A program made the position numbers and the translations under genes. 64,000 bases of DNA, from positions 3,470-67,469 of the forward strand of contig NZ_CANMEU010000015.1 in the NCBI RefSeq assembly GCF_947497045.1, written 5' to 3'. Shown here one piece after another: positions 32,384 through 58,717 of this stretch. Origin of the DNA: an uncultured Tateyamaria sp. (GTDB lineage Bacteria; Pseudomonadota; Alphaproteobacteria; Rhodobacterales; Rhodobacteraceae). The notes beneath the pieces are model-generated. The model ran no database searches. It was not told the origin of the DNA and saw nothing but the letters and a program-made list of their open reading frames with translations. Position 1 is the stretch's first letter. Each line of letters starts with the position of its first letter.

Positions 32384-32407
32384 AATTCTTTGGGAGGAGA
32401 TATTCAG

Positions 32408-37166: not shown

Positions 37167-37204
37167 GGGGCCGCGCGGGCGGATCAAAGAGGGAGAGTAA
37201 GACC

Positions 37205-39064: not shown

Positions 39065-41454
<2,390 letters not shown>

Positions 41455-41458
<4 letters not shown>

Positions 41459-43071
41459 TCCGCGCTCAACGCCAGCGCCCCGCCATGCGACAGATACGCA
41501 AACCCATTGCCCGGCAACGCAAGGGTCGCGCCATCAAGCGTTGCGGCATGCGGCCCGGTCAGCTTTGCTGCCCCGTCCAAGGCCACCATCTGCGGCGTCT
41601 TTGACAGGTTGAACACGCAAGTCAGCGCCCCCTCCCCTGCCCCACGCGTGAATGCAAGCAACGGCTCGGGCAGATCGTGAAACGCCGTCGCCCCGGTGCG
41701 CAGCGCGGGCACGGATTTGCGAAAGGCAATCGCCTCCCTGTAAAACGCCAGAATACCATCCGAGCTCTGCTGATCGACAGCGCGGGCAAGCTGCGGTGCC
41801 TTCACTGGCAGCCACGGTTTCGCTTCGGAAAACCCCCCATGGGGCGCGTTCTTTTCCCAGACCATCGGCGTGCGGCAGCCATCGCGGCCCTTGACCGCAG
41901 GCCAGAAGCGGATCGCGGGCGGGTCTGTCAGCTCTTCAAAGGTCATTTCAGTCTCTAACTGGCCCAATTCCTCGCCCTGATAGATGCCGATGGTGCCCTC
42001 GAACGACATCAACATCGCGCAAGTAAGGCGGGCCATCGCATCGTCGGACACAGCATAGTCCGCCCACCGGCTGACTTGGCGCGCGACATCATGGTTGCTG
42101 AACGACCAGTAGGGATGCCCATCAGGCGCGCCCTGCTGGAACCCTTCGATACAGTTGCGAAAGTGCTCGGCCGAGAAATCCGGCCCAAGCATCGCAAAAC
42201 TGTAGGCCATGTGGAGGCGGGTCGTCCCGGCGGTGTATTCGCCCATGATCTGGATCGATCGGCGGCCCATCTCGCCCACTTCGCCCACCATCATAATGTC
42301 GTCATATTGATCGGTCAGCGCGCGCAGCCGCTCAAGAAAGCCCAGATTTTCAGGCCGCGTCTTGTTGTAAATATTGTCCTGCATCCCATAAAGATCGGTC
42401 GCCATCACCTGTGGCTTGGACTGCGCAGGCGGGTTCGAGCGCAGCTTTTGATCGTGGAAATAGTAGTTCACGGTATCAAGGCGAAAACCATCCAGCCCCC
42501 GATCCAGCCAGAACCTGCAGGTCTCAAGGATCGCGTCGATCACATCCGGATTATGGAAATTCAGATCGGGCTGCGAGGCGAGGAAATTGTGCAGGTAATA
42601 CTGCCCCCGTTGCGGATCGAACTCCCATGCGGGGCCGCCGAAATGACTGTGCCAATTGGTTGGGGGCGACCCGTCCGGCTTGGGGTCGGCCCACACATAC
42701 CAGTCCGCCTTGTCATTGGCGCGGTTGGTGCGGGACTGGGCAAACCACTCATGCTTGTCAGAGGTATGGGACAGAACCTGATCCACGATCACCTTCAGGC
42801 CCAGATCATGCGCGGTCGCGATCAGTCGGTCGAAATCATCAAGGTCGCCAAACAACGCATCGATGGTCAGATAGTCCGACACATCATAGCCCATGTCGGC
42901 CTGCGGTGACTGAAACACCGGGGACAACCAGATGCAGTCCGCCCCCAGTTCGGCGATATGGGGCAGACGGCGGGTGATACCGTTCAGATCGCCCACACCA
43001 TCCCCGTTGTCGTCCTGATATGAGCGGGGATAGACCTGATAGACAACCGCGTCGCGCCACCATTCCTGCAT
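41455..43071 (-). CDS. GH13 alpha-glucosidase (oligo-1,6-glucosidase-like)
   Basis: VVYQVYPRSYQDDNGDGVGDLNG, GFRLDTVN, VGEV. Its stop overlaps the glgP stop. Confidence 0.85.
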
Positions 43072-43161: not shown

Positions 43162-45099
43162 TCAGCTTTGGTAGTACGGCGCACTGTGGGGCAACTCATA
43201 GCCATAGCGTTTCATGCCCTTGGGACTGATCTGACTCAGCACCAATCCCGTAACGCGCTGCCCAGAGGTGTGGAAAACGCGCAGCGCCTCCTCGACCTGG
43301 GTTTCACTGGTCTTGTCCCATTGCACGGAAAAGATGATGGCATCGACCTGTTCGGCGATAATGCGGGCATCCGGGACAACCAGAACAGGCGGCGTGTCGA
43401 TGATGATGGTGTCGTAAACCGCCCGCGCCTCGCTCATCAGGGCGCGGAAACTCTCCGAGGCGAACAGGTCCGCCGCGCTGACCGTCGTGGCCTCTCCGGC
43501 CAGTATGTCCGCGCCGAAATGCGCGCTCCGAAACACCGCCTCAGTCAACGACTTTTCCCCGTTCAGCACGGACACGATCCCATCGTCCGGCAGGGCCGTG
43601 AAATATTCGTGCAAGGTGCGCCGCCGAATGTCGCCCTCGATCAGCAACACACGTTTGCCCAGACCCAACAGGTTCTGCGCAAGGGCAAGCGCATTGGTGG
43701 TCTTGCCCTCACCCGGCACAGAAGAGGTGAACAAAATCACCTGCGGTGGCGTGTCGACATTGGACAGCATGATCGAGGTACGCAGATTGCGGATCGCCTC
43801 GACCGCGGCCGAAGTCGGCTTGTCCGACAGATATTGCAGCACATCACGCCGGCCGGCGACGGGCATGATCGGCACCTGCCCCAACACCGCATATCCGGCA
43901 AAGGCCTCAAGATCCTGCGCCGTGCGGAACCCGTTGTGACCCATCTCGCGCAGCAATACAAAGCCGGTGCCCAGCATCAGGCCCAACACGCCGGACATGG
44001 TCAGGATCAGTGATTTGCGCGGCTCAGAAGCAAACAGCGGCACAACCGCATCCGACAATATGCGGCTGTCGGCCTGCTGAATGCCCTGTTGGGCCGAGGT
44101 CTCGTTAAAGCGGGTCAGAAAATACTCATAAAGCACCCGCGTCGCCTCTGCTTCGCGGGTCAGTTGTTGCAAGGTGATCAGGTCTTCGCCTTGACGCTCC
44201 AGCGCCTGTTTCAACTCGCGCTCCGAGGCGCGCAAAGCCTGCACTTGCTGATCGGTGCCGCTCAGGGACGCGGTGGTGATACGGTCGCGCACATCCTTGA
44301 TCTGACGCTCAAGCGCCTGCATCCCACCCACCGACACCAATTCCGTCGATCCGCGAAAGGTCGATACATCGGCCTCCGCGCCCTCCAGCCGTGCCTGCAA
44401 CTCAGCCACCCGCGTACCCAGCCAAAGCGTTGCTTGCCGGGTCGTCTCGAACTTCACCTCGACCTGATTGAGGATATACAGCTCCACAATCATATCCGCG
44501 ATGCTTGCAGATTTGCGCGGGCTTTCCGTCTCTACTGTGACCTGAAACACAAGGCTCAGCGGGACATTGCGCACCGTCACCGCGTGCAACAGGGTCGAAA
44601 TCACCGCGTCCCGGGTCTGTTGTGTCTGCTCCTCCGGGGTCAGCTCAAATATGGGGCCGCCCAGACCCAGGCCCGATTTGATCAGCCCCTTGATACGATC
44701 CCACAGCGTGACAGGGCGCAGGGCGCGGTTGAATTCCGGGTCCTGGGTCAGGTTCAGCCGGTCCACAACCTCTCCCATCAGGCCACGGGCGCGCAGCACC
44801 TCGACCTCGGAATTGACCTCGGATGTGTCACCGGACAAACCGCCCACCACGCTTTGCAAATCGATGATCTGTTCCTGATTGGTCTCAAGGATCACCACCG
44901 CGGTGGAGCGGAAGATGGGTATGGCCAGCACATAGGCGTAATAGCCGCCAAGCAGGATCGCAATTGCAGTCGCCGCACAGATCACCCATTTGCCGCGCCA
45001 AATGGTCGACGCCAGACCGCCCAAATCAATGACATCGCCATCGCTGTGCGGTCGGGCGGGCGATATGCTACCGGCCGAGATATGTCTGCTGTATTGCAT
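43162..45099 (-). CDS. Polysaccharide co-polymerase / BY-kinase (Wzc/ExoP-like)
   Basis: N-terminal Wzz-type TM plus coiled coil. Walker A reads SSVPGEGKTT. Tyr-rich C-terminal tail (RYGYELPHSAPYYQS). Confidence 0.85.
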   Translation of the reverse strand: MQYSRHISAGSISPARPHSDGDVIDLGGLASTIWRGKWVICAATAIAILLGGYYAYVLAIPIFRSTAVVILETNQEQIIDLQSVVGGLSGDTSEVNSEVEVLRARGLMGEVVDRLNLTQDPEFNRALRPVTLWDRIKGLIKSGLGLGGPIFELTPEEQTQQTRDAVISTLLHAVTVRNVPLSLVFQVTVETESPRKSASIADMIVELYILNQVEVKFETTRQATLWLGTRVAELQARLEGAEADVSTFRGSTELVSVGGMQALERQIKDVRDRITTASLSGTDQQVQALRASERELKQALERQGEDLITLQQLTREAEATRVLYEYFLTRFNETSAQQGIQQADSRILSDAVVPLFASEPRKSLILTMSGVLGLMLGTGFVLLREMGHNGFRTAQDLEAFAGYAVLGQVPIMPVAGRRDVLQYLSDKPTSAAVEAIRNLRTSIMLSNVDTPPQVILFTSSVPGEGKTTNALALAQNLLGLGKRVLLIEGDIRRRTLHEYFTALPDDGIVSVLNGEKSLTEAVFRSAHFGADILAGEATTVSAADLFASESFRALMSEARAVYDTIIIDTPPVLVVPDARIIAEQVDAIIFSVQWDKTSETQVEEALRVFHTSGQRVTGLVLSQISPKGMKRYGYELPHSAPYYQS

Positions 45100-45299
45100 G
45101 GTTTTTGCTGCTGATGCCCTGCGATTGGGGTGGTGTCACACGGGTTCGACCCAAGCGTGCTGCGGCACCCTAGCATTGCCAAGGTTACCGATATGTTAAC
45201 GCCAAACGGGCACTGAAACCGCTTCAGATTCGGGCCACGTCGAAATGACTATGGTCTACTCAGCGAATAAGGGGGCGGTTGTGTCTGTGCTGACGGTTC

Positions 45300-45425: not shown

Positions 45426-45703
45426 AGTAAGCGGCACTAGACCGCACCAGAGGCTGGCGATGCATATACACTACCGCAAACGATGGGTCATTCCCGTTGG
45501 GGCCCTCCCTGCATGTGCTGTCGCAGCCGCGACACGCAGGAGGCATGATCCATAAACAGGCAAGGCTAAACGAAACAGGGCCGGACGGCGGCAACCATCC
45601 AACCCTGTGAAATGAAACCAAAGAGGCCCATTCTGTTCGCAGTTTCAGAATAGCCTCGTCGCGCAGAACCCGCAAGCTTTTGCTGTGCGGGAACGAGGAA
45701 AAT

Positions 45704-46675
45704 ATGTCAGAAACAATCGAATTTGACCGGCGCAAGGGCTTTGTCGCCCTGCCGGTTGAAGTGCTGGAACTGGAACTGTCCCCCGGTGCCTTCAGGCTGT
45801 TGGTGGAACTGTGCCGCATGGCAAATATGGACGGGTTTTGCTGGCCTTCACTAGGGCAATTGGGTGAACGGTTGGGTCGGTCCAAGGCGGCGATTTCGGG
45901 ATATGTGACCGCCTTGCGAGAAGCGGAACTGATCTCGACCGAAACACAGACCACCGCCAATGGGTACAACTATCGCCTGCGCTATTGCGTGGTGTTCTGG
46001 AAGGCTTGGCGCGCGTCACTGTCGGGCAAAGTGGCCGCCTCTTGCACCGAAAAAGTCGATCACAAAGATGAATGCAGTGTTCAAAAGAGTGAACGCCTTA
46101 GGGATTCAAAAAAACAGATTCATATAAAACATGACCCCTGCGGGCTGTCCGTTCATGCAAAATTGATTTCTGAGTGGGCCGAGTGCACCAAAGGGACCCC
46201 GTATCCTGCATTAAAGCATACTCCCTCCGAGGGCCTCGTCGCTGCAACGAACCGATGTGTTCAAGACACTGACACAACGATTGAGCTTATGTCCGCGGAT
46301 ATACGATCTGCCTTGGAGCGCACATTCAGCGCTGTTGATCTGGACAAAGATCGGGTTGCTGTGACTGCGGCGGTCGATCACCTCGCCGAAAAAGGGCTGT
46401 CGCGACCGGAGCTGAATGCGTTTTGTGCAGCACTCACGAAAAGCTGGCAGCGGCATTGGCGCAAGGTTCCGACCCCAAAACAGCTTGACCAGACACTCAA
46501 ATCCGCGGCCATAATCCCCTACCGCGCCCAACTCAAACTGCTTGAGGGCTATCTGCGGCGGTGGACATTGGCGCAAAAGACCTTGCGCCCCGCCCCGCCT
46601 TGCGAGAAGTTGCCGGTGCGGATTGGGGCCCCTGCCCTGTCCGGCACACCCACATATATCCGTGGATATAATTAA
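45704..46675 (+). CDS. Putative plasmid replication initiator with an N-terminal winged-helix/HTH
   Basis: N-terminal FVALPVEVLELELSPGAFRLLVELCRMANMDGFCWPSLGQLGERLGRSKAAISGYVTALREAELI. It sits directly upstream of parAB. I prefer the ATG at 45704 over the TTG at 45680. Confidence 0.55.
   Translation: MSETIEFDRRKGFVALPVEVLELELSPGAFRLLVELCRMANMDGFCWPSLGQLGERLGRSKAAISGYVTALREAELISTETQTTANGYNYRLRYCVVFWKAWRASLSGKVAASCTEKVDHKDECSVQKSERLRDSKKQIHIKHDPCGLSVHAKLISEWAECTKGTPYPALKHTPSEGLVAATNRCVQDTDTTIELMSADIRSALERTFSAVDLDKDRVAVTAAVDHLAEKGLSRPELNAFCAALTKSWQRHWRKVPTPKQLDQTLKSAAIIPYRAQLKLLEGYLRRWTLAQKTLRPAPPCEKLPVRIGAPALSGTPTYIRGYN
46289..46303. repeat. Motif copy ATGTCCGCGGATATA (inside rep)
   Basis: Read directly. 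It has the TCCGCGGA palindromic core. Confidence 0.4.
46656..46673. repeat. Motif copy ATATCCGTGGATATAATT (rep 3' end, just before the parA ATG)
   Basis: Read directly. It is a 14-bp near-palindrome, ATATCCnnGGATAT. Confidence 0.4.
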
Positions 46676-46676
46676 C

Positions 46677-48008
46677 ATGGCGTACGGGCAGTTTGAGCAA
46701 TTTATACGGAACATGACCCGCGTCATGGGGGCCGTGAACACAAAGCTGCAACGCGATCTGACGCTGCGCACCCGGGTTGCCCGTCGGTTTTCGATGACTG
46801 AAGTGGCGCAATTGCTGGCTGTCGACACCACTTATCTGACCCGCTTGACCAATGACGAACCACAATTTCCTGAAGGTGAGCGGATCGGGCGCGAGCGCAC
46901 TTTTTCGCCATCCGAGATCATGTTGATCCGGGCCTTGATCGGGTCAAATCCGGGTGCAAAACGCGATCACGTGCATTGGCGCAAACCCGGCGACCCGGTC
47001 AAGGTCGTGACCTTTGGTGCCCAGAAGGGCGGCACGGGCAAGTCACTAAGTGCGGCGCATTTTGCGCAATATATCAACCTGTTCTACGGGTTGCGCGTGG
47101 GCGTGATTGATGCCGATCCACAGGCCACGGTCTCGCTTTACTTTGCGGATGAGGGGCTGCCCTTGTTTGATCCCGACACGGCGACGCTCGCGGACTTCAT
47201 GGGGGTGGACAACCCCGGTGCGGATGCGGTCACGCCGCGCACGGCCGAGGATCTTGACGCGATCTGGCACGCCACACCCTGGCCGGGCATCCGGTTGATC
47301 CCGGGTGGTGCGAATATCCAGAACGGGGATATCAGCCTGTTTTTCCTGTCCCAGTCCAGCCGGGTGCCGGTGTATCGCGTGCTCAAGGACGCGATTGCCA
47401 CGTGGGACGCTGGCAATGGGCCGCGCACGCGCCCTGAGGATTTGCGCGATAACAGCGGTGCATTTGATGTGGCCCGCTATGAGCAGGCGCTGAATGAAAC
47501 GGTGGATGTGATCGTGATTGATCAGCAACCCTCGTTGACGCTGATGCAGCTGAATGGGCTGATCGCGGCGGACAATGTGGTGATCCCGCAGACCATGAAG
47601 GGCTTTGATCTGGCGACGCTGGCGACATACGTGTCCAACATTGGCGAATACCTTGAATTTATCATGGGATTTGAGGCGGATCTGGAGATTGGGGCCGGGG
47701 CCCACATGGTGCTGCCGACGATCGTGCAAGAGCAGAATAATCAGGATGTGGACCAGATTGTGGACCTGTATCGTAAGGCACCGCGCGAGGTGATGCAGGT
47801 GTGGTATTCACGCTCTGACGCGATTGCGAATGCGGCCGAAGAGTACAAGAGTATCTATGAATACCTGCCGCCCAAGACCCGCCGTGTGTCTGCGCGGGCG
47901 TTTATGGACAATGCCAATGCGGTGAATGACGCCCTGGTACAACGGATTTGGCCCACCCTGCCACCACGTGATTTTGCGCAGGCCTTTATGGAGGAGCGTT
48001 GGGACTGA
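46677..48008 (+). CDS. parA: Type Ia partition ATPase with an N-terminal HTH
   Basis: The start was moved to MAYGQFEQF, 1 nt after the rep stop. Deviant Walker A GAQKGGTGKS. HTH-like MTEVAQLLAVDTTYLTRL. Confidence 0.9.
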   Translation: MAYGQFEQFIRNMTRVMGAVNTKLQRDLTLRTRVARRFSMTEVAQLLAVDTTYLTRLTNDEPQFPEGERIGRERTFSPSEIMLIRALIGSNPGAKRDHVHWRKPGDPVKVVTFGAQKGGTGKSLSAAHFAQYINLFYGLRVGVIDADPQATVSLYFADEGLPLFDPDTATLADFMGVDNPGADAVTPRTAEDLDAIWHATPWPGIRLIPGGANIQNGDISLFFLSQSSRVPVYRVLKDAIATWDAGNGPRTRPEDLRDNSGAFDVARYEQALNETVDVIVIDQQPSLTLMQLNGLIAADNVVIPQTMKGFDLATLATYVSNIGEYLEFIMGFEADLEIGAGAHMVLPTIVQEQNNQDVDQIVDLYRKAPREVMQVWYSRSDAIANAAEEYKSIYEYLPPKTRRVSARAFMDNANAVNDALVQRIWPTLPPRDFAQAFMEERWD

Positions 48009-48943
48009 TGGCAAAGAAACGGAAATTGAGCGGGGCCTTGCCCGACGAGGATGTGAACGCTGTGGCGGACGAGCCTCGCAAGGGTGCGATGGGGGGCATG
48101 TGGGCCGGGTCGGCGATGAACATGCTGCAACAGCGCATTGAATCGACCCGTGGATCGCTGGTTGAGGCGGTGCTGGCCGGGACCATGGCCCTTGATCTTG
48201 ACCCTGATCAGATCGTTGATGATCTGGGCAGCGACCGCATGACCAATTGGGTGGCGGACGAAGATTTTGACAAGCTGGTCGCCAATATCGCGCGCCGTGG
48301 GCAGACGCAGCCCATTCGTGTCCGCCCTGCCGAGGCGGGATGGGTGCCCAATGAAGATACGCCGCTTGAGACTGATGCCCGCTTTGTCATTCAATCGGGC
48401 CGCCGCCGCCTTGAAGCCTGCCGGAAACTGGGCCGCACGGTCCGCGCGGTTGTGTCGACCGAGGTTGGGGATCAGGCGCTGGCCGACCTCGAGGAGCGGT
48501 TTCACGAGAACACGATGCGCCGCGACCTGAACGGGTTTGAGGAGCTGATCTCGATTGGTTTGCTGGCTGAAAGCATGACCGAGATGACCCAGACCGAGAT
48601 CGCTGAACGCATCGGTGTGAGCCAGGCGGATGTGTCGTTGGGGCAGGGGTGTCTTGCATTTCGGGACGAGATTTTGCGTCAGGTCGATATCGAGGACACC
48701 CCCAAGCGCGCCTACCGCACGATCCTGCCCAAGATTAAAAAGGGTGAGCGGCTGAAGGTGCCGGATTATGACAAGCCGATCCGCCAACGCTATGACGTGC
48801 GGGGCATTCCGATGGTGACGGTCCCGGTCACGGGTGGGTTTGATATTGCCATCAGCAAGGCCCGCGTCGATGAGGATGATCTGGATGATATGCTGGTCGA
48901 GATGGCGAAGCTGATTATGAAGTACCAGCGCAAGAAGCCTTAA
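48008..48943 (+). CDS. parB: Partition protein ParB/RepB-like
   Basis: ParB-N region (QPIRVRP ... IQSGRRRLEACRKLG). The ATG overlaps the parA stop (TGATG). Confidence 0.85.
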   Translation: MAKKRKLSGALPDEDVNAVADEPRKGAMGGMWAGSAMNMLQQRIESTRGSLVEAVLAGTMALDLDPDQIVDDLGSDRMTNWVADEDFDKLVANIARRGQTQPIRVRPAEAGWVPNEDTPLETDARFVIQSGRRRLEACRKLGRTVRAVVSTEVGDQALADLEERFHENTMRRDLNGFEELISIGLLAESMTEMTQTEIAERIGVSQADVSLGQGCLAFRDEILRQVDIEDTPKRAYRTILPKIKKGERLKVPDYDKPIRQRYDVRGIPMVTVPVTGGFDIAISKARVDEDDLDDMLVEMAKLIMKYQRKKP

Positions 48944-48959
48944 GTCCGCGGATATAATT
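48942..48959. repeat. Motif copy AAGTCCGCGGATATAATT (immediately after the parB stop)
   Basis: Read directly. It shares TCCGYGGATATAATT with 46659-46673. Confidence 0.4.
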
Positions 48960-49047
48960 GCGGTGCCCTGCCCCACCGCGCGCTTGCTTAGCAGTTGATT
49001 AACCCGTTTTCCGCATCTTCCGCCTGTCTTTTTCCAAGGAGGCTGCG

Positions 49048-49317
49048 ATGCCCATTTCCGATACATTCCGTGCGTTTCAACCCGGCCTGAACAGCCCTGT
49101 CGAAGGTGGGTTTGATGTGACGCCTGCGGATGGCGTTGATCTGCAATCTGTTACCCGTGCCGTCATGGTTGCCGGTGCTGGCGATCTGGCTGTGACGTTG
49201 AAAAATGGCGACACGATCACCCTGCCGGGCCTGACCGCTGGTGTGATCTATCCCGTCCGGTTGGCGCAGGTGGCAGCGACCGGCACAACGGCGACGGGCA
49301 TCAAGGGGCTGCTTTGA
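49048..49317 (+). CDS. Small protein resembling the RcGTA head-spike base protein (rcc01079/GhsA family)
   Basis: 89 aa with AGGAGG upstream. The pattern FxPGLxSP ... ITP-D ... LxxVTRAxxV ... GD ... TGTTATGIxGL was recognised from memory of this family. Confidence 0.55.
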   Translation: MPISDTFRAFQPGLNSPVEGGFDVTPADGVDLQSVTRAVMVAGAGDLAVTLKNGDTITLPGLTAGVIYPVRLAQVAATGTTATGIKGLL

Positions 49318-50657
49318 TGCTGGGTGTTGCGGTCGGTTTGCACCCTCAACATAGCGCGCGGCGTGCTGTTGCTTTTCCTGCGGGGTTTGGCTGGGATCAG
49401 GGCCGCTTTGGCTTTGGCATTGCGGAGGTGGGTGGCCGGTTCGAGACGGATCTGGACCCGCGTGCGCTTGTCGATCCGGCGATCTGGACGGCCCCCGCCT
49501 TTCATGTCGACACGGGCGGCAGTGATGCCAACAGCGGGTTGGGTGCACAGGACGGTGATTTTTCCGATGCCAAGCGCACGATCTATGCCGCCTTTGTTGC
49601 GGGCAATGCGACCGGTGCGCCCTATCGTGTGTTGGTGAACGCTGGCCAATACAAGGAAAGTGAATTCACCCGCAACGGCAACGATGAGCCGGATCAGCCG
49701 GTTGCGCTGATTGCCTGGGGTGGTCGTGTGCAGTACCGCACCGGCCCGTTCACCGTGAACTGGAGCGATGCGGGCGGCACCTACTCCGCCTCGGCCAGTG
49801 CGGTCAAGCGCGTGTTTCGCACCGATGTGCTGACGCCTGAGGGCTTGTATTCCGAGCTGGAGCAGGTCGCAGATGTTGCTGTCTGTGCTGCGACGCCGGG
49901 GAGTTGGGTCCTTGATGGGTCTGTGGTTCATGTGAATGTGGGCGGTGTGCCGGGCCCTTCTGATATTGCGCTGATGCGTGGGTTTCATGGTGCGCGGTTC
50001 ATGCAGCATGTCGATGATTTCTATATCGAGGGGTTTGATCTTGAGGGCGGGATCACCGGCACGTTGCATTTCGACAAGCTGTCGGTGCGCAACATTGTGG
50101 GTGTCGATTGCACCTTTCGGTATTCGGCACCGTACAATCTGGGCGCGCCTTTGGATGCAGTGCGTGTGCGCCGGGTTGATGGGCTGTGTGCTTTTTTCCG
50201 CTGTGATGCGAGCTTTGGCGCCAAGGATGGCTGGTCTTTCCATGATGATGGCGCTGCGGGCATGCATGTGCTGTTGCAGGATTGCTCGGGGTGGCGCAAT
50301 GGCGCGTTGGGCGCGACGTCGGTCAATGCGTTTACTGTCCATGATGCGGTGCGTGCGATTGGGCTGAACGGTCGGTTTGGGTTGTCGCGCAATGGGTCCG
50401 AACTGCATTCGATCCAGGATGCGCAGTGGTGGCTGGCTGGCACGCGGGTTGTGGCGCGGGATGTGGATGGGTCTTCGGTGGCGTATCAATGTTCGAACGC
50501 GTCGCAGATGTGGCTTGAGCGTTGCGTGGCGGATGCGGCGGGTGGGGCCGACAATTTCGCGATCGAGGCGAATGGTGGAACTGTCTCTATCCGGCGTTTT
50601 GAGCCTGTATCAGGGTCTATTGAGGTCTATTCGGGTGGGTCTGTGACTCCGTTCTGA
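49317..50657 (+). CDS. Putative spike fibre / right-handed beta-helix protein
   Basis: TGATG coupling to the upstream gene. G/N/D/V-rich repetitive beta-strand-like segments. Position is equivalent to rcc01080/GhsB. Confidence 0.4.
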   Translation: MLGVAVGLHPQHSARRAVAFPAGFGWDQGRFGFGIAEVGGRFETDLDPRALVDPAIWTAPAFHVDTGGSDANSGLGAQDGDFSDAKRTIYAAFVAGNATGAPYRVLVNAGQYKESEFTRNGNDEPDQPVALIAWGGRVQYRTGPFTVNWSDAGGTYSASASAVKRVFRTDVLTPEGLYSELEQVADVAVCAATPGSWVLDGSVVHVNVGGVPGPSDIALMRGFHGARFMQHVDDFYIEGFDLEGGITGTLHFDKLSVRNIVGVDCTFRYSAPYNLGAPLDAVRVRRVDGLCAFFRCDASFGAKDGWSFHDDGAAGMHVLLQDCSGWRNGALGATSVNAFTVHDAVRAIGLNGRFGLSRNGSELHSIQDAQWWLAGTRVVARDVDGSSVAYQCSNASQMWLERCVADAAGGADNFAIEANGGTVSIRRFEPVSGSIEVYSGGSVTPF

Positions 50658-50679
50658 GCTGCGGGGTATGTGTGGCTGG

Positions 50680-52050
50680 TCAGGCAGCGTTCCGGGGTGT
50701 CCGGGGCGCTGTTTGTGTTGTTGTGTCAGTTATATTGACCTTTCTGCGTCCGGCGTACAGTGCCGCTGCGTAGAATGCTGTTCCGAGCAGGACCTGAGTG
50801 GCGAGGTTGAGTGCGGGTATCAGTAGCAGTCCGCCTGCCATGAGTGCCCCTGCGATGAGGGGTGCCATGATGGGGGAGAGGTCGTGGCGTGTTAGCTTTA
50901 GCGGTTTCAGGCTGTGTGGCAGGAACCAAAGGCTGGTGATCAGGGCCGCCATGCTGAGGCTGGCCGCACTGAGTGTCGGATTGCACAGCAGTGTTGGTGC
51001 GACCAGTATGACGGCGAGCATTGATCCGAGGGTCGCGTGTCTTAGCACAAGTTGTGTGTGTCCGGTCGCCGTGAGGGCTTGGAGAAGCGGCATCCAGAGC
51101 GCGGTGAACAGCCCGGTCAGTGCGAGTGCCCGCAGGATGGGGCTGACCGTGTTGGCGTGTTCTGTGCCTACCACCAGTGCGAGGATGTTTGGGGCGGCTG
51201 CCACTGTGCCCCCCCAGATCCATGCTGCCAGCGTTGCATTAAGTCGTAAGTGTCGCTGCAGGGAGGTGCGCAGATCGGTTGCCGCGCGCAATTGGGGCAA
51301 GGCGATAAAGCGCAGGGGGGACAGTGTAAGTGCCTCGATCAGGCTGAGCATCCGTGTGGCGATTTGGAAGGCCCCTGCGGCGGTCATTCCCAGGGTCAGT
51401 CCGATCGCGAGTTGCGCGAGCGGGAATTGCGCATTTGTCAGCAGGTCTCGGGTTGTGATCTGGGTGATCAATGGCCTTATTAGGCTCTGATATCGCCAGT
51501 TGGGCACGGATTTGGGGTAGTACCCTGCCAAACAGATCGAGAGGCCACAGGACAGCCCCGTGTTGAGCAGCGCAAATGTGGCGAGCGCCCATGGTCCGAT
51601 GCCGCTGACCAGCATCCAGAGGGTGATGGCAGCGGCAAATGTCTGGACAGCCATCGTGCGCAGGGCCAGTGCGCGCAGGGCGAGGCGGCGGCGCAGGAGC
51701 CCTTCGGAGACGGCGGCGAGGCCGTTGAGCGTCGGGATTGCTGCCAGAGTGGTCAGCAGGGGTGTTTGCGTGGCGATGCCGACGCTGGCCAGCAGTACCG
51801 ACAGCAGCAGCCCTGTTCCCGTGGACATCGCAAAGAGCGCGTCGCAGCGGCGTCGGGATTTGCCGGTTATGATGACCGCTTCGCCGATGCCCGCCTTGTG
51901 CAGACCTTGGGTCAGCCGCACGGGTGCGATGGCGGTGGCGAAAAGCCCGATCTCGGCCAGGGTCAGGAACCGCGTGGCGACCAGAAACACCGCAGCGGCG
52001 ATGCCGACCCGCGCCCATTGCAATGCGAAGGACCAAAGGCGCATTGTCAT
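50680..52050 (-). CDS. Wzx-type polysaccharide flippase (MOP superfamily)
   Basis: The start was moved to MTMRLWSFALQWARVG (ATGA overlap with the acyltransferase stop). It has at least 10 hydrophobic segments. Confidence 0.7.
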   Translation of the reverse strand: MTMRLWSFALQWARVGIAAAVFLVATRFLTLAEIGLFATAIAPVRLTQGLHKAGIGEAVIITGKSRRRCDALFAMSTGTGLLLSVLLASVGIATQTPLLTTLAAIPTLNGLAAVSEGLLRRRLALRALALRTMAVQTFAAAITLWMLVSGIGPWALATFALLNTGLSCGLSICLAGYYPKSVPNWRYQSLIRPLITQITTRDLLTNAQFPLAQLAIGLTLGMTAAGAFQIATRMLSLIEALTLSPLRFIALPQLRAATDLRTSLQRHLRLNATLAAWIWGGTVAAAPNILALVVGTEHANTVSPILRALALTGLFTALWMPLLQALTATGHTQLVLRHATLGSMLAVILVAPTLLCNPTLSAASLSMAALITSLWFLPHSLKPLKLTRHDLSPIMAPLIAGALMAGGLLLIPALNLATQVLLGTAFYAAALYAGRRKVNITDTTTQTAPRTPRNAA

Positions 52051-53063
52051 GCGGGCAGGGCTTTGGGCTTGGGTGCGAGGGTGCGCATCATTGGCCGTTC
52101 GATCAACAGATGCGTCAGCAGCCCGACGGCAAGCGCGAGGGCGCAGACGCTGATCACATAGATTGCCGCCCCAAAGGGCGAGGCGGGCAGCAGTGGTAAC
52201 AGCAAGATCGTTGCGGCCCGCAAGGCAAAGCGGTGCGACAGATAGAGCGCATAGGACGCATCCCCCCAGATCTGGCCGGGCAGGTTGCGTTGTGGGCACA
52301 GCAGCGTGCCGCTGGCGACGATCAGTGCGGCGGGCACGCCAGCGGCGATGAACCGGGGCAGGGGGGTCGGATCAAGCACGATCAGCAGGCCCAACCCGAT
52401 GCCCACGAGTGCCGCCGCCCCGCCCCAATGCGGCCACCGCCAGCCGCGTTGCCAGAGCTGTGCAAGGCCGATGCCTATGAGGAACTCAAGGATGATCGGA
52501 TCGCTCCAGAATACCAAGGGCGCGCTGGTCCATGGGATGAAAGCCCCGAGGGTCGCGATGCTGCATATCAGTGCCGTCAGCGCCAGAAACGGGCGTGGCA
52601 GGGCGAGGCAGAGGGCGGCGAGCGCGTAGAAGAAGATTTCGTAATTCAGCGTCCAGCCGAGGGACAGGACAGGCGCAATCCGCCCGTCGCCGCGTTCGTA
52701 GGGGATGAAGCTGTAGGAGCTGAGGATTTGGGCGGGGTCCAATGTGGTGTCCTTGGCCCCGCCGGGCAGTGCGATCAGCACCGCCACCATCAGCGTTGTG
52801 AACAGGAAATAGAGCGGCACCACCCGCACCAGCCTGCGCCACAGGAACGGGCCGGGCTGGCCCATCAACCGATTGGCTGACAGCGTGATCACGAAGCCCG
52901 AAATCACGAAGAAGATGTCGACCCCGCGTGTCCATGGTACCGCGTCGCCGGGCAGGGGCAGGCCAAAATAGTGTTCGGCCTCGGCCAGCACATGCCCGAT
53001 CAAGACCATGAGGGCGGCAAGCGCGCGCAGGACTTGCAAACCGGGGAGGCGCCGCGGGGTCAT
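52047..53063 (-). CDS. Acyltransferase family 3 (O-acetyltransferase)
   Basis: LPGLQVLRALAALMVLIGH plus a polytopic membrane topology. Confidence 0.85.
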   Translation of the reverse strand: MTPRRLPGLQVLRALAALMVLIGHVLAEAEHYFGLPLPGDAVPWTRGVDIFFVISGFVITLSANRLMGQPGPFLWRRLVRVVPLYFLFTTLMVAVLIALPGGAKDTTLDPAQILSSYSFIPYERGDGRIAPVLSLGWTLNYEIFFYALAALCLALPRPFLALTALICSIATLGAFIPWTSAPLVFWSDPIILEFLIGIGLAQLWQRGWRWPHWGGAAALVGIGLGLLIVLDPTPLPRFIAAGVPAALIVASGTLLCPQRNLPGQIWGDASYALYLSHRFALRAATILLLPLLPASPFGAAIYVISVCALALAVGLLTHLLIERPMMRTLAPKPKALPA

Positions 53064-54352
53064 GTGCGCACCTGTGATGAGAGCGCGTGCCTGCGTCGCC
53101 GACTGCGGAAGGTGATGCGCGGGGCAGGGCGCGCCGCTTCTCCGCTTGGTCGTTTCCTGGACAGGAAGATGACCCCGCCCATCAGCGCCACGGAAAAATA
53201 GAAGTTCTGATGCGTGAAATAGAGCGAATGGCTGGAAAACAGCAGCGCTGCCCCGATCTGTGCATAGACCACGGCCCAGCCAAGTGATGTGTGCGCCCGC
53301 ATGAAAATCTGCCGAAACACAAAGGCGCAGATCGCGATGAAAATCGCGCCGCCGATGGGGCCATAATCCACATAACCGGCCGTGAAAAATGGGAACTCAC
53401 CGCCCCCGAGGACCCCGTCCAGCGTTCGCATCTTGCTGGCGAGCAGGGTTTGGAAATAGCCGTCACTGAAGGTCATAAACATCAGCCCCTCAAGCGTGAC
53501 CCCGCCATATGTGTGCGGGATCGGGATCGACAGGGGCGCAAAGCCGTTGAACATGTCGTTGACCAGATAGAAGGCCAGTTTTTGCGTCGCGATATCGAGC
53601 GCCGGACGTTGGATGATCGGGTTTGTGATCGCCTCGCGCGCGGTCCACAGCGCCAGAAACAGCAGGATACCGCACCCCACCCAATGCAGCGCGATCACCC
53701 GTTGTTTGACGATGCAGGCGACGATGTAGCTGCTGAGCACCAGTTGCAGCAAAAGCAGTCGCTGGCTCATCACGATGGGCAGGATGAACAGGGCTGCGGT
53801 GTTCACGGCCAGCACGCTCCACATCATCAGGCAGGCCTGGCGGGGCAGGGTGTGTGTGGCCAGAAGTGCCGCGGCAAGGCAGGCGGTGGCTGGCAGTGCG
53901 GCATAGAACAGCCGCATGCCGGTGAAGAGTTTGTTCTGAAGCAGGATATCGCGGGTTGTGAGGCTGTCGGCATAGGCCGCCCTTGCCAGTTCGATCAGCC
54001 CCCCCGCATTGGCCGCTGCCCCAAAGATCCACAGTGCTGTCACCCCAAGCAGGACCAGATTGGCGAGCCCCGTCAGGATCGCCATGCGTTTGAGATCAAA
54101 GGCAGCGGGCTGCGCCCGTGTTGGCTGTCGGATCATCCGTGCGCAGAGGTCCCCGACCAGATAGATGACCAGCCCGAGCAGCGTCCATGACAGCCCCGCC
54201 CATCCGAAAGCCGACAGGTGCAGCCCTTCGCGGATGATGAACGCCTGCACCAGATCAAGTTGGTCCAGTTGCGCCAGCGTCCACCCCGCGCCAATGCCCG
54301 TGAGCCCCCAGCACAAGAATACCAGCGCAAGAGGGGAGAGCGCATGCCGCAT
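53060..54352 (-). CDS. Wzy/O-antigen-polymerase-like membrane protein
   Basis: Polytopic 430-aa membrane protein, ATGA-coupled inside the polysaccharide operon. No specific motif was recognised. Confidence 0.5.
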   Translation of the reverse strand: MRHALSPLALVFLCWGLTGIGAGWTLAQLDQLDLVQAFIIREGLHLSAFGWAGLSWTLLGLVIYLVGDLCARMIRQPTRAQPAAFDLKRMAILTGLANLVLLGVTALWIFGAAANAGGLIELARAAYADSLTTRDILLQNKLFTGMRLFYAALPATACLAAALLATHTLPRQACLMMWSVLAVNTAALFILPIVMSQRLLLLQLVLSSYIVACIVKQRVIALHWVGCGILLFLALWTAREAITNPIIQRPALDIATQKLAFYLVNDMFNGFAPLSIPIPHTYGGVTLEGLMFMTFSDGYFQTLLASKMRTLDGVLGGGEFPFFTAGYVDYGPIGGAIFIAICAFVFRQIFMRAHTSLGWAVVYAQIGAALLFSSHSLYFTHQNFYFSVALMGGVIFLSRKRPSGEAARPAPRITFRSRRRRHALSSQVRT

Positions 54353-54355
54353 GGC

Positions 54356-55075
54356 TTAGGCCGCCTGCGCGAGAAACTGGCTTTGAAAGATGGCGATGTC
54401 GGGCGCGCACAGGGCCTCGATCTGCGCGCGCAACTCGGGTGGTACTGTCAGGGGGACGGGGGCCGCATTGCGGTGCCAGCGGATCAGGGGTGTGTGTGTC
54501 AGTCGCCGCAGATCGCGGGCAAAGGCGTCTGGTGCCCCAAGGTCGCCCACGATGTCAAAGCGCCCCAGATTGCGGATTGCCTGCCGGATCAGGGCCCCTG
54601 TGTTCTGGCCGGGTCGTTGCCACTGTCCGGCGAAATAGAACAGGTATTGCGATGCGATCCGCTGCGCCTCGTGGCTGTCGAGAAACCCGCGCAGGGTGGT
54701 GGCGCGGGCGGGATCGGGGTGTTTGCGTTGCAGGTAGTGGTAATGCGAGACGAACCGCAGGGCTGGGTCGCGCAGTAAGGTCACAAAGCGGTACTGCGCT
54801 GCGGGTCCATCGTGGAAATCGGGATCATATTGGACATGCCCCGCGATCATCCGTTTGCCGCTGGCCACAAGCGTATGAAGTGCGCGCTGCCGCGCCGCAT
54901 AGTCGCTGAGTATCCGCGCCTCGCCCGTCAGGGTCGTATCTCCCTGATCCAGCCCGATCGTGGATTGTGATGCGAAATAGCGCAGCCGAAGGGCCGCCCC
55001 AAAGCTCGACCCGCCGCATTTGGGCACGTGAATGTAGATGATGCGACCCATGCGCGCTCCCACCTGATTAACCAT
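54356..55075 (-). CDS. Sulfotransferase-family protein
   Basis: PAPS 5'-phosphosulfate-binding-loop-like motif IHVPKCGGSS near the N-terminus. 239 aa. Confidence 0.7.
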   Translation of the reverse strand: MVNQVGARMGRIIYIHVPKCGGSSFGAALRLRYFASQSTIGLDQGDTTLTGEARILSDYAARQRALHTLVASGKRMIAGHVQYDPDFHDGPAAQYRFVTLLRDPALRFVSHYHYLQRKHPDPARATTLRGFLDSHEAQRIASQYLFYFAGQWQRPGQNTGALIRQAIRNLGRFDIVGDLGAPDAFARDLRRLTHTPLIRWHRNAAPVPLTVPPELRAQIEALCAPDIAIFQSQFLAQAA

Positions 55076-55197
55076 CTGTTAACACATGAGAAAAACCGTC
55101 CTTTTTCTGCACGTATTAGGATTTTGGTAAGGATCGCACGCGATGGTTAATGCGGGCTTAACAGTGATGGGGGTGATAATGCGGCCAAGGAGATCCA

Positions 55198-56346
55198 ATG
55201 CACATCGCGCATGTTCTAACCCGCCTTTTGCGTGCGGGATCCGAAGAAAACACGCTTGCCACATGTCGCTGGCAGGTCGCTGCGGGCCATCGTGTCAGCC
55301 TGATCCACGGCAATATGTGTGACCCGTTCTGGCATGATCATTTGCCCCGTGGCGTGACCCGCATCGCGGTCCCCGAGATGGTGCATCCCATCCGTCCCGT
55401 GCAGGATGCCCGCGCGGTGACCCGCCTGCGCGCGCTTTACCGCGATCTGCGCCCCGATGTTATCCACACCCACCAAAGCAAGGCTGGTGTTCTGGGCCGG
55501 TTGGCGGCGGATGCGGTGCCGGATGCGGTTGTCGCGCACGGCATCCACATCATTCCCTTTGAGGGTGTCGGTGATCCAAAGCGCGCGCTGTATGTTGCCG
55601 CAGAGCGGATGGTGGCCCGCCGCACGGATGTCTTCATCGCCGTGTCTGAGGCCGTGGGTTGCGCCTATGTCGAGGCGGGCATAACGGGGCAGGTGCATTG
55701 TGTCCGCTCGGGCATGGATCTGGCGCGGTTCCGCGACGCGCCGCTGCCTGCGGATTGGCCCGCTGTGTTGGGCGTGGCCCCCGGCGCTGCCCGTCCGCCC
55801 GTTGCGCTGATGATGGCCGCCTTTGAGCCGCGCAAGCGTCATGTCCCGTTCTTGCGCGCCTTTGCCAGGGCGGTGGATGTTTTGCCTGACATGAAGCTGC
55901 TGTTGGCGGGGCGCGGCCCGGAAGAGGCGCGGGTCCGCGCCGAGGTGGCCGCGTTGGGTCTGGGCGACCGCGTGGTGTTTTGCGGTCACCGCCCTGATCC
56001 CGAGGCGCTGTTTGCGCTGGCGGATGTGTCCATTCTGACCTCTGAACGTGAGGGGTTGCCGCGTGTCGTGGTACAGTCCATCGCGGCGGGCTGTCCGCCT
56101 GTCGTGCAGCACCTGCCGGGCCTTGATGAGGTCGTTGTGGATGGGCGCAATGGCGTGATTGCGGCGCCGGACAATATGGACGCCACTGTGCGCGCCCTGC
56201 GCGAGGTTCTTGCATCGCCAAAGCAATTGGCGGCGTTGAGGCGGGGTGCACGCGCCACCGACCTGAGCGCATGGGCCCTGGACAGGTTGGGGGCCCGGAC
56301 CACGGCTCTTTATCAGGCCCCTGCGGCCCTGTCGGAGGTCGCATGA
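55198..56346 (+). CDS. Glycosyltransferase family 4
   Basis: GT-B fold features. C-terminal LTSEREGLPRVVVQSIAAGCP (EX7E-type region). Confidence 0.85.
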   Translation: MHIAHVLTRLLRAGSEENTLATCRWQVAAGHRVSLIHGNMCDPFWHDHLPRGVTRIAVPEMVHPIRPVQDARAVTRLRALYRDLRPDVIHTHQSKAGVLGRLAADAVPDAVVAHGIHIIPFEGVGDPKRALYVAAERMVARRTDVFIAVSEAVGCAYVEAGITGQVHCVRSGMDLARFRDAPLPADWPAVLGVAPGAARPPVALMMAAFEPRKRHVPFLRAFARAVDVLPDMKLLLAGRGPEEARVRAEVAALGLGDRVVFCGHRPDPEALFALADVSILTSEREGLPRVVVQSIAAGCPPVVQHLPGLDEVVVDGRNGVIAAPDNMDATVRALREVLASPKQLAALRRGARATDLSAWALDRLGARTTALYQAPAALSEVA

Positions 56347-57440
56347 CCGTTTACATCAATGGCCGTTTTCTGACCCAACCGGTATCGGGTGTGCAGCGCT
56401 ATGCGCGCGAAATGATGGGTGCCTTGGATGCTTGCCTTGGGGCGTCGCCGTCGATGCAGGCGCGGCTTGGCCCGGTGGAGGTGTTGGTGCCGCGTGCGGT
56501 TCCTGCGCCGGGGTGGTCCACGCTTGGGGTCCGTGTGGTGCGTGGTGGCAAGGGCCATATGTGGGAGCAGGGGGCCTTGTATCAGGCCAGCAAGGACGAT
56601 GTGCTGGTCAGTCTGGGCAACAGCGGGCCGCTGCGTCACCGCGCCCATATCCTGTGCCTGCATGATGCCAATCTGTTTGAAATCCCGCGGGCCTTTGGTC
56701 GCCGCTATCGCGTGGCGCATCGGTTGCTGCGCCCGGCCCTCGCGCAGCGCGCCGCTGCTTTGCTGACGGTGAGCCAGCATTCTGCCGGTGTCTTGTCTCA
56801 CCATCTGGGCGTGCCTGCTGATCGCTTTACGATTGTGCCCAACAGCGCCGAGCATGTCTTGCGCTGGCCCCATGCCCCCGGCGTGCTGGCCACCTATGGA
56901 CTGACTCGGGGGCGCTATCTGCTGAGTGTGGGCAATCAAAGCCCCAACAAGAACCTTGGTGCGCTGATTGCGGCCCATGAGCTCGCGGGGCCGGATGTGC
57001 CCCCGCTGGTCTTGGTCGGGGGTGATGTGCCGGGTGTGACCCATGCGGAGGCGGGGCAGGGCACGCGCGCCCTTGGTCGCGTGCCGGACAGTCATTTGCG
57101 TGCGCTTTATGAGGGTGCGGCGGCTTTCGTGTTTCCGTCCTTGCACGAAGGATTCGGGATTCCCCCGCTTGAGGCGATGCAGTTGGGTGTGCCTGTTTTA
57201 TGTGCCCGGAGTGGCGCGATGCCTGCAGTGCTGGGCAATGCGCCGCTGTGGTTTGATCCGCTGGACGTGGTCGATATGGCCCGTGCCCTGCGCACCTTTG
57301 CCCGGATGGCCCCGTCAGAGCGGGCTGCCATGCAGGTGATCGGCAAGGCGATGGCCGCGCAGTACCGATGGGATCAGAGCGCGCGGCGCCTGGCCGGGAT
57401 TGTCGTGCGCGTCAGGTTGCATGCGGCGCTGGCGGCCTAG
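56343..57440 (+). CDS. Glycosyltransferase family 4
   Basis: The start was moved to MTVYINGRFLTQPVSGVQRY (ATGA overlap). FPSLHEGFGIPPLEAMQLGVPV. Confidence 0.85.
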   Translation: MTVYINGRFLTQPVSGVQRYAREMMGALDACLGASPSMQARLGPVEVLVPRAVPAPGWSTLGVRVVRGGKGHMWEQGALYQASKDDVLVSLGNSGPLRHRAHILCLHDANLFEIPRAFGRRYRVAHRLLRPALAQRAAALLTVSQHSAGVLSHHLGVPADRFTIVPNSAEHVLRWPHAPGVLATYGLTRGRYLLSVGNQSPNKNLGALIAAHELAGPDVPPLVLVGGDVPGVTHAEAGQGTRALGRVPDSHLRALYEGAAAFVFPSLHEGFGIPPLEAMQLGVPVLCARSGAMPAVLGNAPLWFDPLDVVDMARALRTFARMAPSERAAMQVIGKAMAAQYRWDQSARRLAGIVVRVRLHAALAA

Positions 57441-57730
57441 AACCCGGTGAACAGCATGTCGAGGGCGGCTGTGATTTCGTCCTGTGCCGCGCTGAGGCTG
57501 CTGTGCCTGTCGCCGAGAATGGAGGTGGGCACCGTTGCGATGAACTGGGTTGCCATCAGCAGTTGCGTTCCATCAAGGTCGAAGATCGGGTTCAGCCTGC
57601 GGGCGGGCGTGGGGGCCTGATCAAGCGGGATCAGTGGCACCACCACGCGGGTGGTCAACACGTCGAGCAGATCGGACTGAACGTCCAGCAACAGCCCGCT
57701 GTCGCTGGCAAACACGTCAAAGCGCGCCAC
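57437..57730 (-). CDS. ccdB: CcdB-family toxin
   Basis: GTG start 1 nt into the ccdA stop (TAGTG). ARFDVFASDSGLLLDVQSDLL ... RLNPIFDLDG is the typical CcdB layout. Confidence 0.85.
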   Translation of the reverse strand: MARFDVFASDSGLLLDVQSDLLDVLTTRVVVPLIPLDQAPTPARRLNPIFDLDGTQLLMATQFIATVPTSILGDRHSSLSAAQDEITAALDMLFTGF

Positions 57731-58045: not shown

Positions 58046-58717
58046 CTAACGCCCTGTGGGGCGCACCACCACCAAAGCGGTGCGTGCGATCAGCCCCAAG
58101 TCCTGCAACAAGCTGATCCGCTGTTCGTAGGTTTGGTCGAGGTGTAGCCGTTGCGTATAGCATCCGTTGGCGCGTGCGGTGACCTGCCACAGCCCTGTGA
58201 TCCCCGGTTTCAGGGACAGGTAGACATGGCTATGCGGCCCGTAGCGTTCAAGTTCGGGGAGGGTGACGGGGCGGGGGCCCACAAAGCTCATGTCGCCGCG
58301 CAACACGTTCCAGATTTGGGGGAGTTCATCCAGACTGGTGCGCCGTAGGAGGTGGCCCAAACGGGTAATGCGCGGATCGTTTTCCAGCTTTTGGGTGCGG
58401 TGCCATTCGGCGCGCGCAACCGGGTCGGTGTTCAGGTGATGTTCAAGCCGCGCCTCGGCGTCGGGCAGCATGGTGCGGATTTTCCAGCAGGCGAAGGTCT
58501 GGCCGTGACGGCCCACACGGGTGTGGGCGAACAACCCCGCGCTGCCGTCGCGGCGAACGAGCAGGACCAGGACCGCGATAATGGGCAGCAGGGCAGGCAG
58601 CAGGATCACGGTAAGGGTCAGATCAAGGGCGCGTTTGCCGATCCGCCGATAGAGGTGCCGCGCGCCAAGGGTGCGGATAGAGGCATGTGGATCAGACAGC
58701 AGATCAAGATGCGCCAT
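58046..58717 (-). CDS. Undecaprenyl-phosphate sugar phosphotransferase (ExoY/WbaP C-terminal-type priming enzyme)
   Basis: KRALDLTLTVILLPALLP ... KIRTM ... DPRITRLGHLLRRTSLDELPQIWNVLRGDMSFVGPRP. Confidence 0.9.
   Translation of the reverse strand: MAHLDLLSDPHASIRTLGARHLYRRIGKRALDLTLTVILLPALLPIIAVLVLLVRRDGSAGLFAHTRVGRHGQTFACWKIRTMLPDAEARLEHHLNTDPVARAEWHRTQKLENDPRITRLGHLLRRTSLDELPQIWNVLRGDMSFVGPRPVTLPELERYGPHSHVYLSLKPGITGLWQVTARANGCYTQRLHLDQTYEQRISLLQDLGLIARTALVVVRPTGR

Follow-up and report, generated by a model that had tools for sequence, protein, structure and literature searches.

A gene pair of probable gene transfer agent head-spike type, encoding a base protein and a beta-helix protein, beside a polysaccharide locus in Tateyamaria

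The two genes considered here lie in a 64,000-nucleotide stretch of contig NZ_CANMEU010000015.1 from an uncultured Tateyamaria sp., referred to below as the window, and encode proteins of 89 and 446 aa. With a probability of roughly 0.6, the pair encodes a capsid-vertex (head) spike of the type carried by RcGTA, the gene transfer agent (GTA) of Rhodobacter capsulatus, in which the distal protein has been exchanged. The 89-aa protein is established as a member of the GhsA/Rcc01079 family of spike base proteins, at the level of both sequence and fold, and the 446-aa protein, modelled as a right-handed beta-helix, most likely plays the role of the fibre. The pair adjoins a polysaccharide locus with which it is co-inherited, and this is strongly supported by the comparison of related loci.

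The spike base protein and its coupled partner

The small protein matches the NCBIfam model NF048002 (spike base protein, RCAP_Rcc01079 family) with 101.1 bits against a cutoff of 28, over positions 1–84 of the 85 in the model, and matches the base chain of the RcGTA head spike in PDB entry 6TB9 with a phmmer E-value of 3.8e-10. It also falls into phrog_12296, and the N-terminal D-x-F is kept. Its AlphaFold2 model (predicted local distance difference test, pLDDT, of 82) finds 6tb9 as the top Foldseek match, with template modelling (TM) scores of 0.77/0.81, followed by 8cjz, the spike base of phage Carin1. It is because the sequence matches to NF048002 and 6TB9 are accompanied by a 6tb9-like fold that membership of the family, which the original prediction had proposed, can be taken as established.

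The small gene is followed without a gap by the large one, as the stop codon TGA (49315–49317) shares its A with the ATG (49317–49319) of the 446-aa open reading frame (ORF) in a TGATG overlap. The automatic ORF call of the large gene is 447 aa, due to one extra in-frame TTG codon at the 5' end. The earlier description of an 89-aa ORF preceded by AGGAGG and translationally coupled to a 446-aa ORF thus agrees with the coordinates, yet the large protein, described there as rich in glycine, asparagine and aspartate, is in fact rich in G (13.0%), A (12.3%), V (9.9%) and D (7.6%), with N at only 3.6% and not enriched. No sigma-70 promoter was found 5' of the pair by consensus scan. More than 165 conserved homologues of the large protein were found, of 446–451 aa, sharing 55–95% identity over about 20 genera, the closest relative (95%) being from an uncultured Tateyamaria sp. 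An antisense ORF at 49248–50489 was rejected as a gene and regarded as a shadow of high GC content, given these homologues of the forward frame and the pLDDT of 93.6 of its product. A fusion of both proteins by −1 frameshifting, once proposed for rcc01079/80, was also rejected, as the chains are separate in the RcGTA structure and the genes here overlap by TGATG.

The R. capsulatus locus was retrieved through the PDB sequence of the spike base. In that locus the end of rcc01079 (84 aa) runs into rcc01080 (325 aa), which is followed by glycosyltransferase genes, and the comparison bears out the expected common layout of a base gene, a coupled larger gene and then polysaccharide genes (PMC5026251). 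The two larger proteins are another matter. The 446-aa protein shows no homology to Rcc01080 (best BLASTP E-value 1.6), and in PHROGs Rcc01080 belongs to phrog_5939, whereas the 446-aa protein matches phrog_16653 ("hydrolase", 2.4e-32) and phrog_32409 ("tail fiber"). On these grounds the protein is not a member of the GhsB/Rcc01080 family, and its assignment to that family in the original prediction has to be given up.

Searches of the 446-aa protein against Pfam, NCBIfam and PDB sequences gave nothing significant, with no PDB match at E ≤ 1. Its AlphaFold2 model is a confident right-handed beta-helix (pLDDT 93.6, predicted TM score 0.92), and the Foldseek neighbours in the PDB include the glycoside hydrolase BT_1002, XylC and the glycoside hydrolase family 110 (GH110), the phage tailspikes LKA1 gp49, P22 and AP22, capsule lyases and AlgE epimerases. 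In the viral library BFVD the model resembles those of tail fibres or hydrolases, with TM scores of up to 0.85, and tblastn revealed full-length matches of 25–28% identity in Gordonia, Arthrobacter, Rhodococcus and Pseudoalteromonas phages, in genes labelled "hydrolase", "glycoside hydrolase" or "minor tail protein". An exhaustive profile search collected 1323 cluster representatives that share the beta-helix module, many of them with 200–700 extra N-terminal residues; no N-terminal tail-adaptor domain was found in the 446-aa protein itself.

In a deep alignment at 27–41% identity, D304, T340 and H342 are invariant and H309, S335 and N337 nearly so, and together these positions may resemble an active-site groove; at residue level they matched none of the characterised active sites. 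The protein may, on its modelled fold and neighbours, be a depolymerase. The original prediction had offered a polysaccharide lyase or depolymerase as an alternative to the spike, and of this the beta-helix fold stands, with its hydrolase, lyase and tailspike neighbours, while the enzymatic activity would follow by inference only. The results suggest that the fibre and depolymerase readings are the same thing, with the beta-helix protein as the distal part of the spike.

Evidence for the proposed head spike and the alternatives

Each RcGTA head spike consists of an Rcc01079 pentamer and one Rcc01080, of which only residues 2–10 (IALGLGLGL) are ordered, forming a five-point star within the base pentamer whose (iso)leucines occupy hydrophobic pockets of the five base subunits (Bárdy et al., PMC7296036). 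The 446-aa protein begins M-L-G-V-A-V-G-L-H-P, with the same alternation of hydrophobic and small residues, and the consensus of 42 family members is M-[LI]-G-[VL]-[GAS]-[VL]-G-[LM]-x-P. Residues 1–12 are disordered in the monomer model and the beta-helix begins near residue 15. Unrelated partners in phages start alike, with MGLGLGIGLGL in RcapNL and MYIGLGISL in Flavobacterium phage immuto. The pattern ^M.{0,2}([LIVM][GAS])3[LIVM], written after the data had been seen, was applied to the six-frame ORFs of the window and of all the fetched loci, with a minimum length of 100 aa. It occurs in 23 of these 2237 ORFs, and all 23 lie immediately downstream of a spike-base gene. The lack of any match among the about 2200 other ORFs is informative even for a post hoc pattern, and the N-terminus of the 446-aa protein is, on sequence grounds, a putative base-docking peptide.

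Two further loci place the same pair among GTA genes. In Kaistia dalseonensis (JAPKNG010000001; L057 10001–11616; L numbers denote individual loci) and in a metagenome contig (L056 8001–9613), an 85-aa base gene and a full-length homologue of 451/452 aa form one gene run inside a GTA cluster, directly 3' of baseplate genes (g15, the GTA_TIM/Rcc01698_C megatron; DUF2793) and 5' of an endolysin gene. The Kaistia homologue shares 33% identity with the 446-aa protein over 428 aa (E 6e-52) and belongs to the same PHROG; that of the metagenome contig shares 30% (E 4e-42). As these pairs are contiguous with GTA genes, the 446-aa family is a recurrent spike-base partner inside true GTA clusters. Head-spike genes can, in clusters of this Hyphomicrobiales type, belong to the main GTA cluster.

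The position of the Kaistia pair after the baseplate genes could also point to a GTA component of the tail or baseplate, or to an enzyme that is released, as with the detachable tailspike TspA, in place of a head component. Beta-helix depolymerases are normally borne on tails, and RcGTA has in TspA a loosely attached beta-helix tailspike (bioRxiv 10.64898/2026.07.19.739414). This explanation is nevertheless very improbable, since the partner of the beta-helix protein is homologous to a base that binds capsid pentons, the docking peptide is conserved, and the lack of any PDB sequence match at the threshold above means that there is no similarity to deposited tailspikes.

Base homologues also occur in phages, namely RcapNL, Rhizobium phage RHph_Y60, immuto and Carin1, where they adjoin capsid and head-morphogenesis genes, and two of the three phage partners inspected carry a glycine/hydrophobic repeat at the N-terminus. 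Together with the beta-helix homologues in Gordonia, Arthrobacter and Pseudoalteromonas phages, the extra copies reported in prophages (Hynes et al., PMC5026251) and one pseudogenised pair (L051), this would suit a phage leftover or moron-like cargo that decorates the capsid of a phage, whether resident or infecting, or lies idle, with no link to a GTA. No prophage genes were seen beside the pair, however, in the window or in the inspected loci, and the conserved length, the identity of 55–95% over about 20 genera and an upstream motif fixed in position argue for long-term selection as a host gene. We consider this origin quite unlikely.

Several observations weigh against an RcGTA-type head spike. 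No GTA structural gene lies within the 64-kb window, and a scan of about 40 of its ORFs against Pfam or NCBIfam, which covered the small ORFs in part, found no phage or GTA structural domain; in this the absence of any other such gene from the window, as first stated, is upheld. Glu12 of Rcc01079, which in RcGTA coordinates a cation together with Asp210 of the capsid, aligns with Asn15 of the 89-aa protein. The large protein lacks similarity to Rcc01080, which is the sole experimentally characterised fibre, and its proposed plug has four clear hydrophobic positions and a proline, not five. The N-terminus of the Kaistia homologue, METAAIKIAG, fits the motif poorly, the motif patterns were set post hoc, and the motif upstream of the pair has its exact form in the Tateyamaria clade only, being degenerate in the other loci. 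Tailspikes with a beta-helix fold usually form trimers, while the RcGTA fibre is a single chain, and CtrA boxes are also found at envelope genes unrelated to GTAs.

If the pair does encode a head spike, then jellyroll pentamers of the 89-aa protein would sit on the capsid pentons of the GTA of the host, and one copy of the beta-helix protein would plug each pentamer through its N-terminal L-G-V-A-V-G-L. In the model set out here, we infer assembly on the GTA capsid, the target polysaccharide, catalysis and control by CtrA. The beta-helix would bind, and probably cleave, the polysaccharide made by the adjacent Wzx/Wzy locus, which would allow particles to gain an initial grip on the capsule of cells with the same cassette and to pass through it. 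Both the pair and the polysaccharide locus have CtrA-type boxes and would probably be switched on with the GTA regulon. The cassette adjoins partition genes, on what looks like an extrachromosomal replicon of chromid type.

The polysaccharide locus and shared CtrA-type motifs

Related loci were surveyed with one genome per species and the alignment of the large protein as query, which gave 47 loci from about 20 Roseobacter-group genera; this number is a lower bound and is biased to the beta-helix type of partner, as the large protein was the query. The pair is intact and adjacent in 43 loci. Downstream sequence of at least 7.5 kb is available for 37 loci. Of these, 34 hold at least five of the six polysaccharide genes, in the same order, within 9 kb downstream, and three have only some of the locus. 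Identity values of the beta-helix protein rise and fall with those of the polysaccharide proteins (Spearman coefficients of 0.68–0.87), a correlation that shared ancestry alone could yield. The original prediction placed the pair between parB and a Wzx/Wzy locus with a convergent flippase, which is correct (Table 1), and suggested that both are co-inherited on a mobile replicon. Co-inheritance is strongly supported by synteny, as genes of the locus lie next to the pair in 37/37 informative loci. A mobile replicon is supported in part only, in that partition genes are present and no transfer genes were seen among the scanned ORFs of the window.

An earlier survey of 21 Rhodobacterales genomes found homologues of rcc01079 in 9, two being plasmid-borne, whereas rcc01080 had no homologue outside R. 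capsulatus among the Rhodobacterales genomes examined, and synteny of the spike locus was kept only within genera (Hynes et al., PMC5026251). The loci described here show a much wider synteny for the beta-helix variant than was reported in that study. No description of a beta-helix partner was found in the literature searched.

Most relatives, for example L002/L006 (11239–12411), have one more glycosyltransferase gene, GumK_N-like, that separates the beta-helix gene from the flippase gene and is absent from the window and from L005, L025, L030 and L047. In the locus of the closest relative (95%; L001 18118–18641), a ccdA/ccdB toxin-antitoxin pair lies inside the polysaccharide locus, and in the window an ORF occupies the corresponding site, at about 57437–57960.

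Upstream of the pair, a composite motif CGNNCG-N4-5-(G)TTN-N7-(G)TTAAC lies at −70 to −74. It is present in 24 of the 45 related upstream regions, where shuffled sequences predict 0.07; the pattern is post hoc, and the analysis was anchored on it since the motif shifts by up to 3 nt, which makes ungapped column conservation uninformative. The alphaproteobacterial CtrA box is TTAA-N7-TTAAC, and the 3' part of the motif agrees with it. The upstream region of rcc01079 in R. capsulatus holds a similar string, CGAACGGTCCGTTTGGATCGCAGTTTCC. The form TTA-N8-TTAAC has five occurrences in the window, where 0.15 would be expected, and all of them fall in promoter regions, namely those of the pair and of wzc and, twice, the divergent region between the sulfotransferase-like and GT4 genes. 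Over the 47 loci there are 93 matches against 6.25 expected, with 60 in the intergenic region between the sulfotransferase and GT4 genes, where the consensus GGTTAAcGcgNgcTTAACg, a palindromic site, is found in 30 related loci.

In R. capsulatus, phosphorylated CtrA (CtrA~P) and GafA trigger the head-spike genes, and spike and capsule genes are co-regulated (PMC9638019, PMC10218006). The boxes suggest that the Roseobacter polysaccharide locus belongs to the CtrA regulon, and the pair and the polysaccharide genes may be co-regulated by CtrA.

With such boxes common to the pair and the polysaccharide genes, and with a conserved Wzx/Wzy locus beside the pair in all 37 informative loci, it could also be argued that the pair is a cellular accessory of that locus. 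The beta-helix protein would then trim or modify the polymer as a glycanase, lyase or epimerase, either secreted or periplasmic, comparable to ExoK, AlgL, PslG or AlgE, and the small protein would have been co-opted with no role in a virion. The glycoside hydrolases and AlgE epimerases among the fold neighbours, the conserved D and H residues and the lack of virion genes in the window are all in keeping with this. It is an unlikely explanation, however, as the small protein has the 6TB9-like fold and exceeds by a wide margin the cutoff set for an equivalog model of a capsid-attached protein, the same pair occurs inside the Kaistia GTA clusters, the phage homologues of the base adjoin capsid and head-morphogenesis genes, and the N-terminus of the 446-aa protein appears to resemble a base-docking peptide and not an evident signal peptide.

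A head spike with an exchanged distal protein therefore remains the preferred interpretation, and it can be set against four groups of known systems. The RcGTA head spike (GhsA/Rcc01079 and GhsB/Rcc01080; PDB 6TB9; PMC7296036, PMC5026251, PMC10218006) has a base of 38–40% identity and the same fold, a small gene coupled to a larger one whose product opens with an alternating hydrophobic/small peptide, a place outside the GTA structural cluster beside polysaccharide genes, and CtrA-type sites upstream. It differs in its 325-aa lectin-like protein (phrog_5939), where the window encodes the 446-aa beta-helix (phrog_16653), as well as in polysaccharide gene content, in the rep/parAB neighbours found here and in Glu12 of the base, which is not conserved here. 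Phage tailspike depolymerases and beta-helix glycanases (P22 tailspike, LKA1 gp49, Klebsiella K1 lyase, BT_1002, GH110) share the right-handed parallel beta-helix, conserved acidic and histidine residues on successive rungs and a genetic link to a specific surface polysaccharide. Here, a peptide of about 10 residues with the capsid-spike docking motif would replace the tail-adaptor domain, and there is probably one chain per pentamer, unlike the tail-mounted trimer.

In phages, modules of base and partner (RcapNL gp29/gp30, immuto gp205/206, RHph_Y60, Carin1 8CJZ) likewise consist of a base homologue and then a partner gene, but the partners are unrelated, range from 144 to 717 aa and sit in structural modules near capsid genes. 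The Hyphomicrobiales GTA clusters represented by Kaistia hold the same two families as a coupled pair; there they are contiguous with GTA genes and endolysin, whereas here they are detached and linked to polysaccharide and partition genes. A metagenome-assembled genome of Yoonia sp. (L055 8001–9852) has its base gene coupled to a third, unrelated partner of 530 aa, with MIGLEL as probable start (called as 536 aa from an upstream start). This pair is embedded in a polysaccharide locus (Bac_transf, YjbH/YjbF, Wzz), which supports a general design of a conserved base, an exchangeable tip and linked glycan genes.

Whilst the odds are somewhat against it, the Roseobacter group may possess a portable GTA recognition cassette, made up of a vertex spike tipped with a beta-helix depolymerase, the Wzx/Wzy locus of the capsule that it recognises and shared CtrA-type control, often adjoining plasmid partition genes. 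In that case a replicon would determine which cells receive GTA-borne DNA from which donors, and a polysaccharide-degrading enzyme would be carried on the head and not the tail. The beta-helix fibre would then be the common head fibre of GTAs and Rcc01080 a replacement specific to Rhodobacter.

GTAs are regarded as major agents of gene exchange in marine Rhodobacterales, but R. capsulatus is the only organism whose GTA head spikes have been characterised. Its rcc01080 had no homologue in the other Rhodobacterales genomes examined (PMC5026251), and an unannotated family of 446-aa beta-helix proteins with a recognisable docking peptide is proposed here as the partner of GhsA elsewhere. The spike genes and the candidate receptor locus make up a single conserved cassette that shares a DNA motif and is often found on extrachromosomal replicons, which makes three questions testable in culturable roseobacters: whether a transferable module sets the host range of GTAs, whether GTA heads carry enzymes, and whether CtrA couples the capsule to GTA production.

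Table 1. Coordinates of the gene pair and of neighbouring features in the window.
Feature	Position	Strand	Remarks
Wzc-type chain-length regulator/tyrosine kinase	43162..45099	-	Just upstream of the rep gene
CtrA-type box, TTAA-N7-TTAAC	45185-45200		Upstream region of wzc
Replicon maintenance module	45680..48943	+	HTH_36 protein (putative initiator), ParA/RepA-like ATPase, ParB/RepB-like protein
ParB-like gene	47999..48943		Upstream of the pair
Upstream motif CGCGCG-N5-TTAG-N7-TTAAC	48977..49003	+	Conserved across related loci
CtrA-type box, TTA-N8-TTAAC	48988-49003		About 60 nt 5' of the small-gene ATG
Shine-Dalgarno sequence AGGAGG	49037..49042	+	5 nt 5' of the small-gene ATG; read from the sequence
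Spike base ORF, 89 aa	49048..49317	+	Jellyroll fold, GhsA/Rcc01079 family
Beta-helix ORF, 446 aa	49317..50657	+	Right-handed; proposed as the spike's distal part, a fibre or depolymerase
Codons for residues 2-10 (LGVAVGLHP)	49320..49346	+	Putative plug docking in the base pentamer
Wzx-type flippase (Polysacc_synt_3)	50680..52050	-	Pfam; adjoins the pair in related loci too
Terminator-like hairpin	50681..50715	+	16 pairs, then a T-rich tract; between the convergent 446-aa gene and flippase gene
Acyltransferase_3 (polysaccharide O-acylation)	52047..53063	-	Pfam; syntenic in related loci
Wzy-like repeat-unit polymerase candidate	53060..54352	-	TIGR04370, 27 bits, below the cutoff of 40; nearly end-to-end match
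Sulfotransferase-like protein	54356..55075	-	PF03567 at 8e-6
Divergent promoter region with two CtrA-type boxes	55068..55162		Full TTAA-N7-TTAAC boxes at 55068-55083 and, palindromic, 55146-55162
Two GT4 glycosyltransferases	55198..57440	+	
Initiating phosphoglycosyl transferase	58046..58717	-	WbaP-like catalytic domain

Replicon context

The contig that carries the pair looks like part of a chromid or megaplasmid rather than a small plasmid, because a sox gene set and a glycogen operon share it with the rep/parAB genes. These genes lie in the stretches 2758–10143 and 30065–43071 of the window, and comprise SoxA, SoxB-like, SoxC, SoxD and FCSD-like genes and a complete glycogen operon (glgB, glgC, glgA, glgX, pgm, glgP, alpha-amylase); iron-uptake genes, an oxoprolinase gene and manC are also present. 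No transfer functions (type IV secretion system, relaxase) were seen among the scanned ORFs of the window, and megablast of positions 46000–52000 against PLSDB gave no match.

Upstream of the pair, a rep/par module of plasmid type is present in 15 of the 47 loci and is of four kinds. The kind found in the window recurs in L005 and L047, RepABC is found in L028, L029 and L051, a divergent ParAB in L048 and L050, and a second type of ParAB in Marinovum, Primorskyibacter, Roseivivax and Sulfitobacter. ParA-like matches of 25–29% identity 5' of other loci were considered as possible polysaccharide kinases, a reading rejected on the Pfam assignments to true ParA/ParB or RepABC. Other upstream flanks include genes of a type VI secretion system on the 3.8-Mb chromosome of Tateyamaria SN6-1, and LysR or dehydrogenase genes in Ruegeria.

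The ParA of the second type, about 2.5 kb upstream (L019, L023, L025, L030, L036, L043, L045, L049), is 84–98% identical across these four genera, and its ParB is much more divergent (53–89%). This type may be a widely shared plasmid backbone. In Tateyamaria sp. Alg231-49 (NZ_FRFA01000013; L051 9863–11172), where RepABC precedes the pseudogenised pair, the base gene breaks off after codon 47 and continues directly with codon 51 of the beta-helix gene. The beta-helix gene contains several frameshifts, and the flippase gene is truncated.

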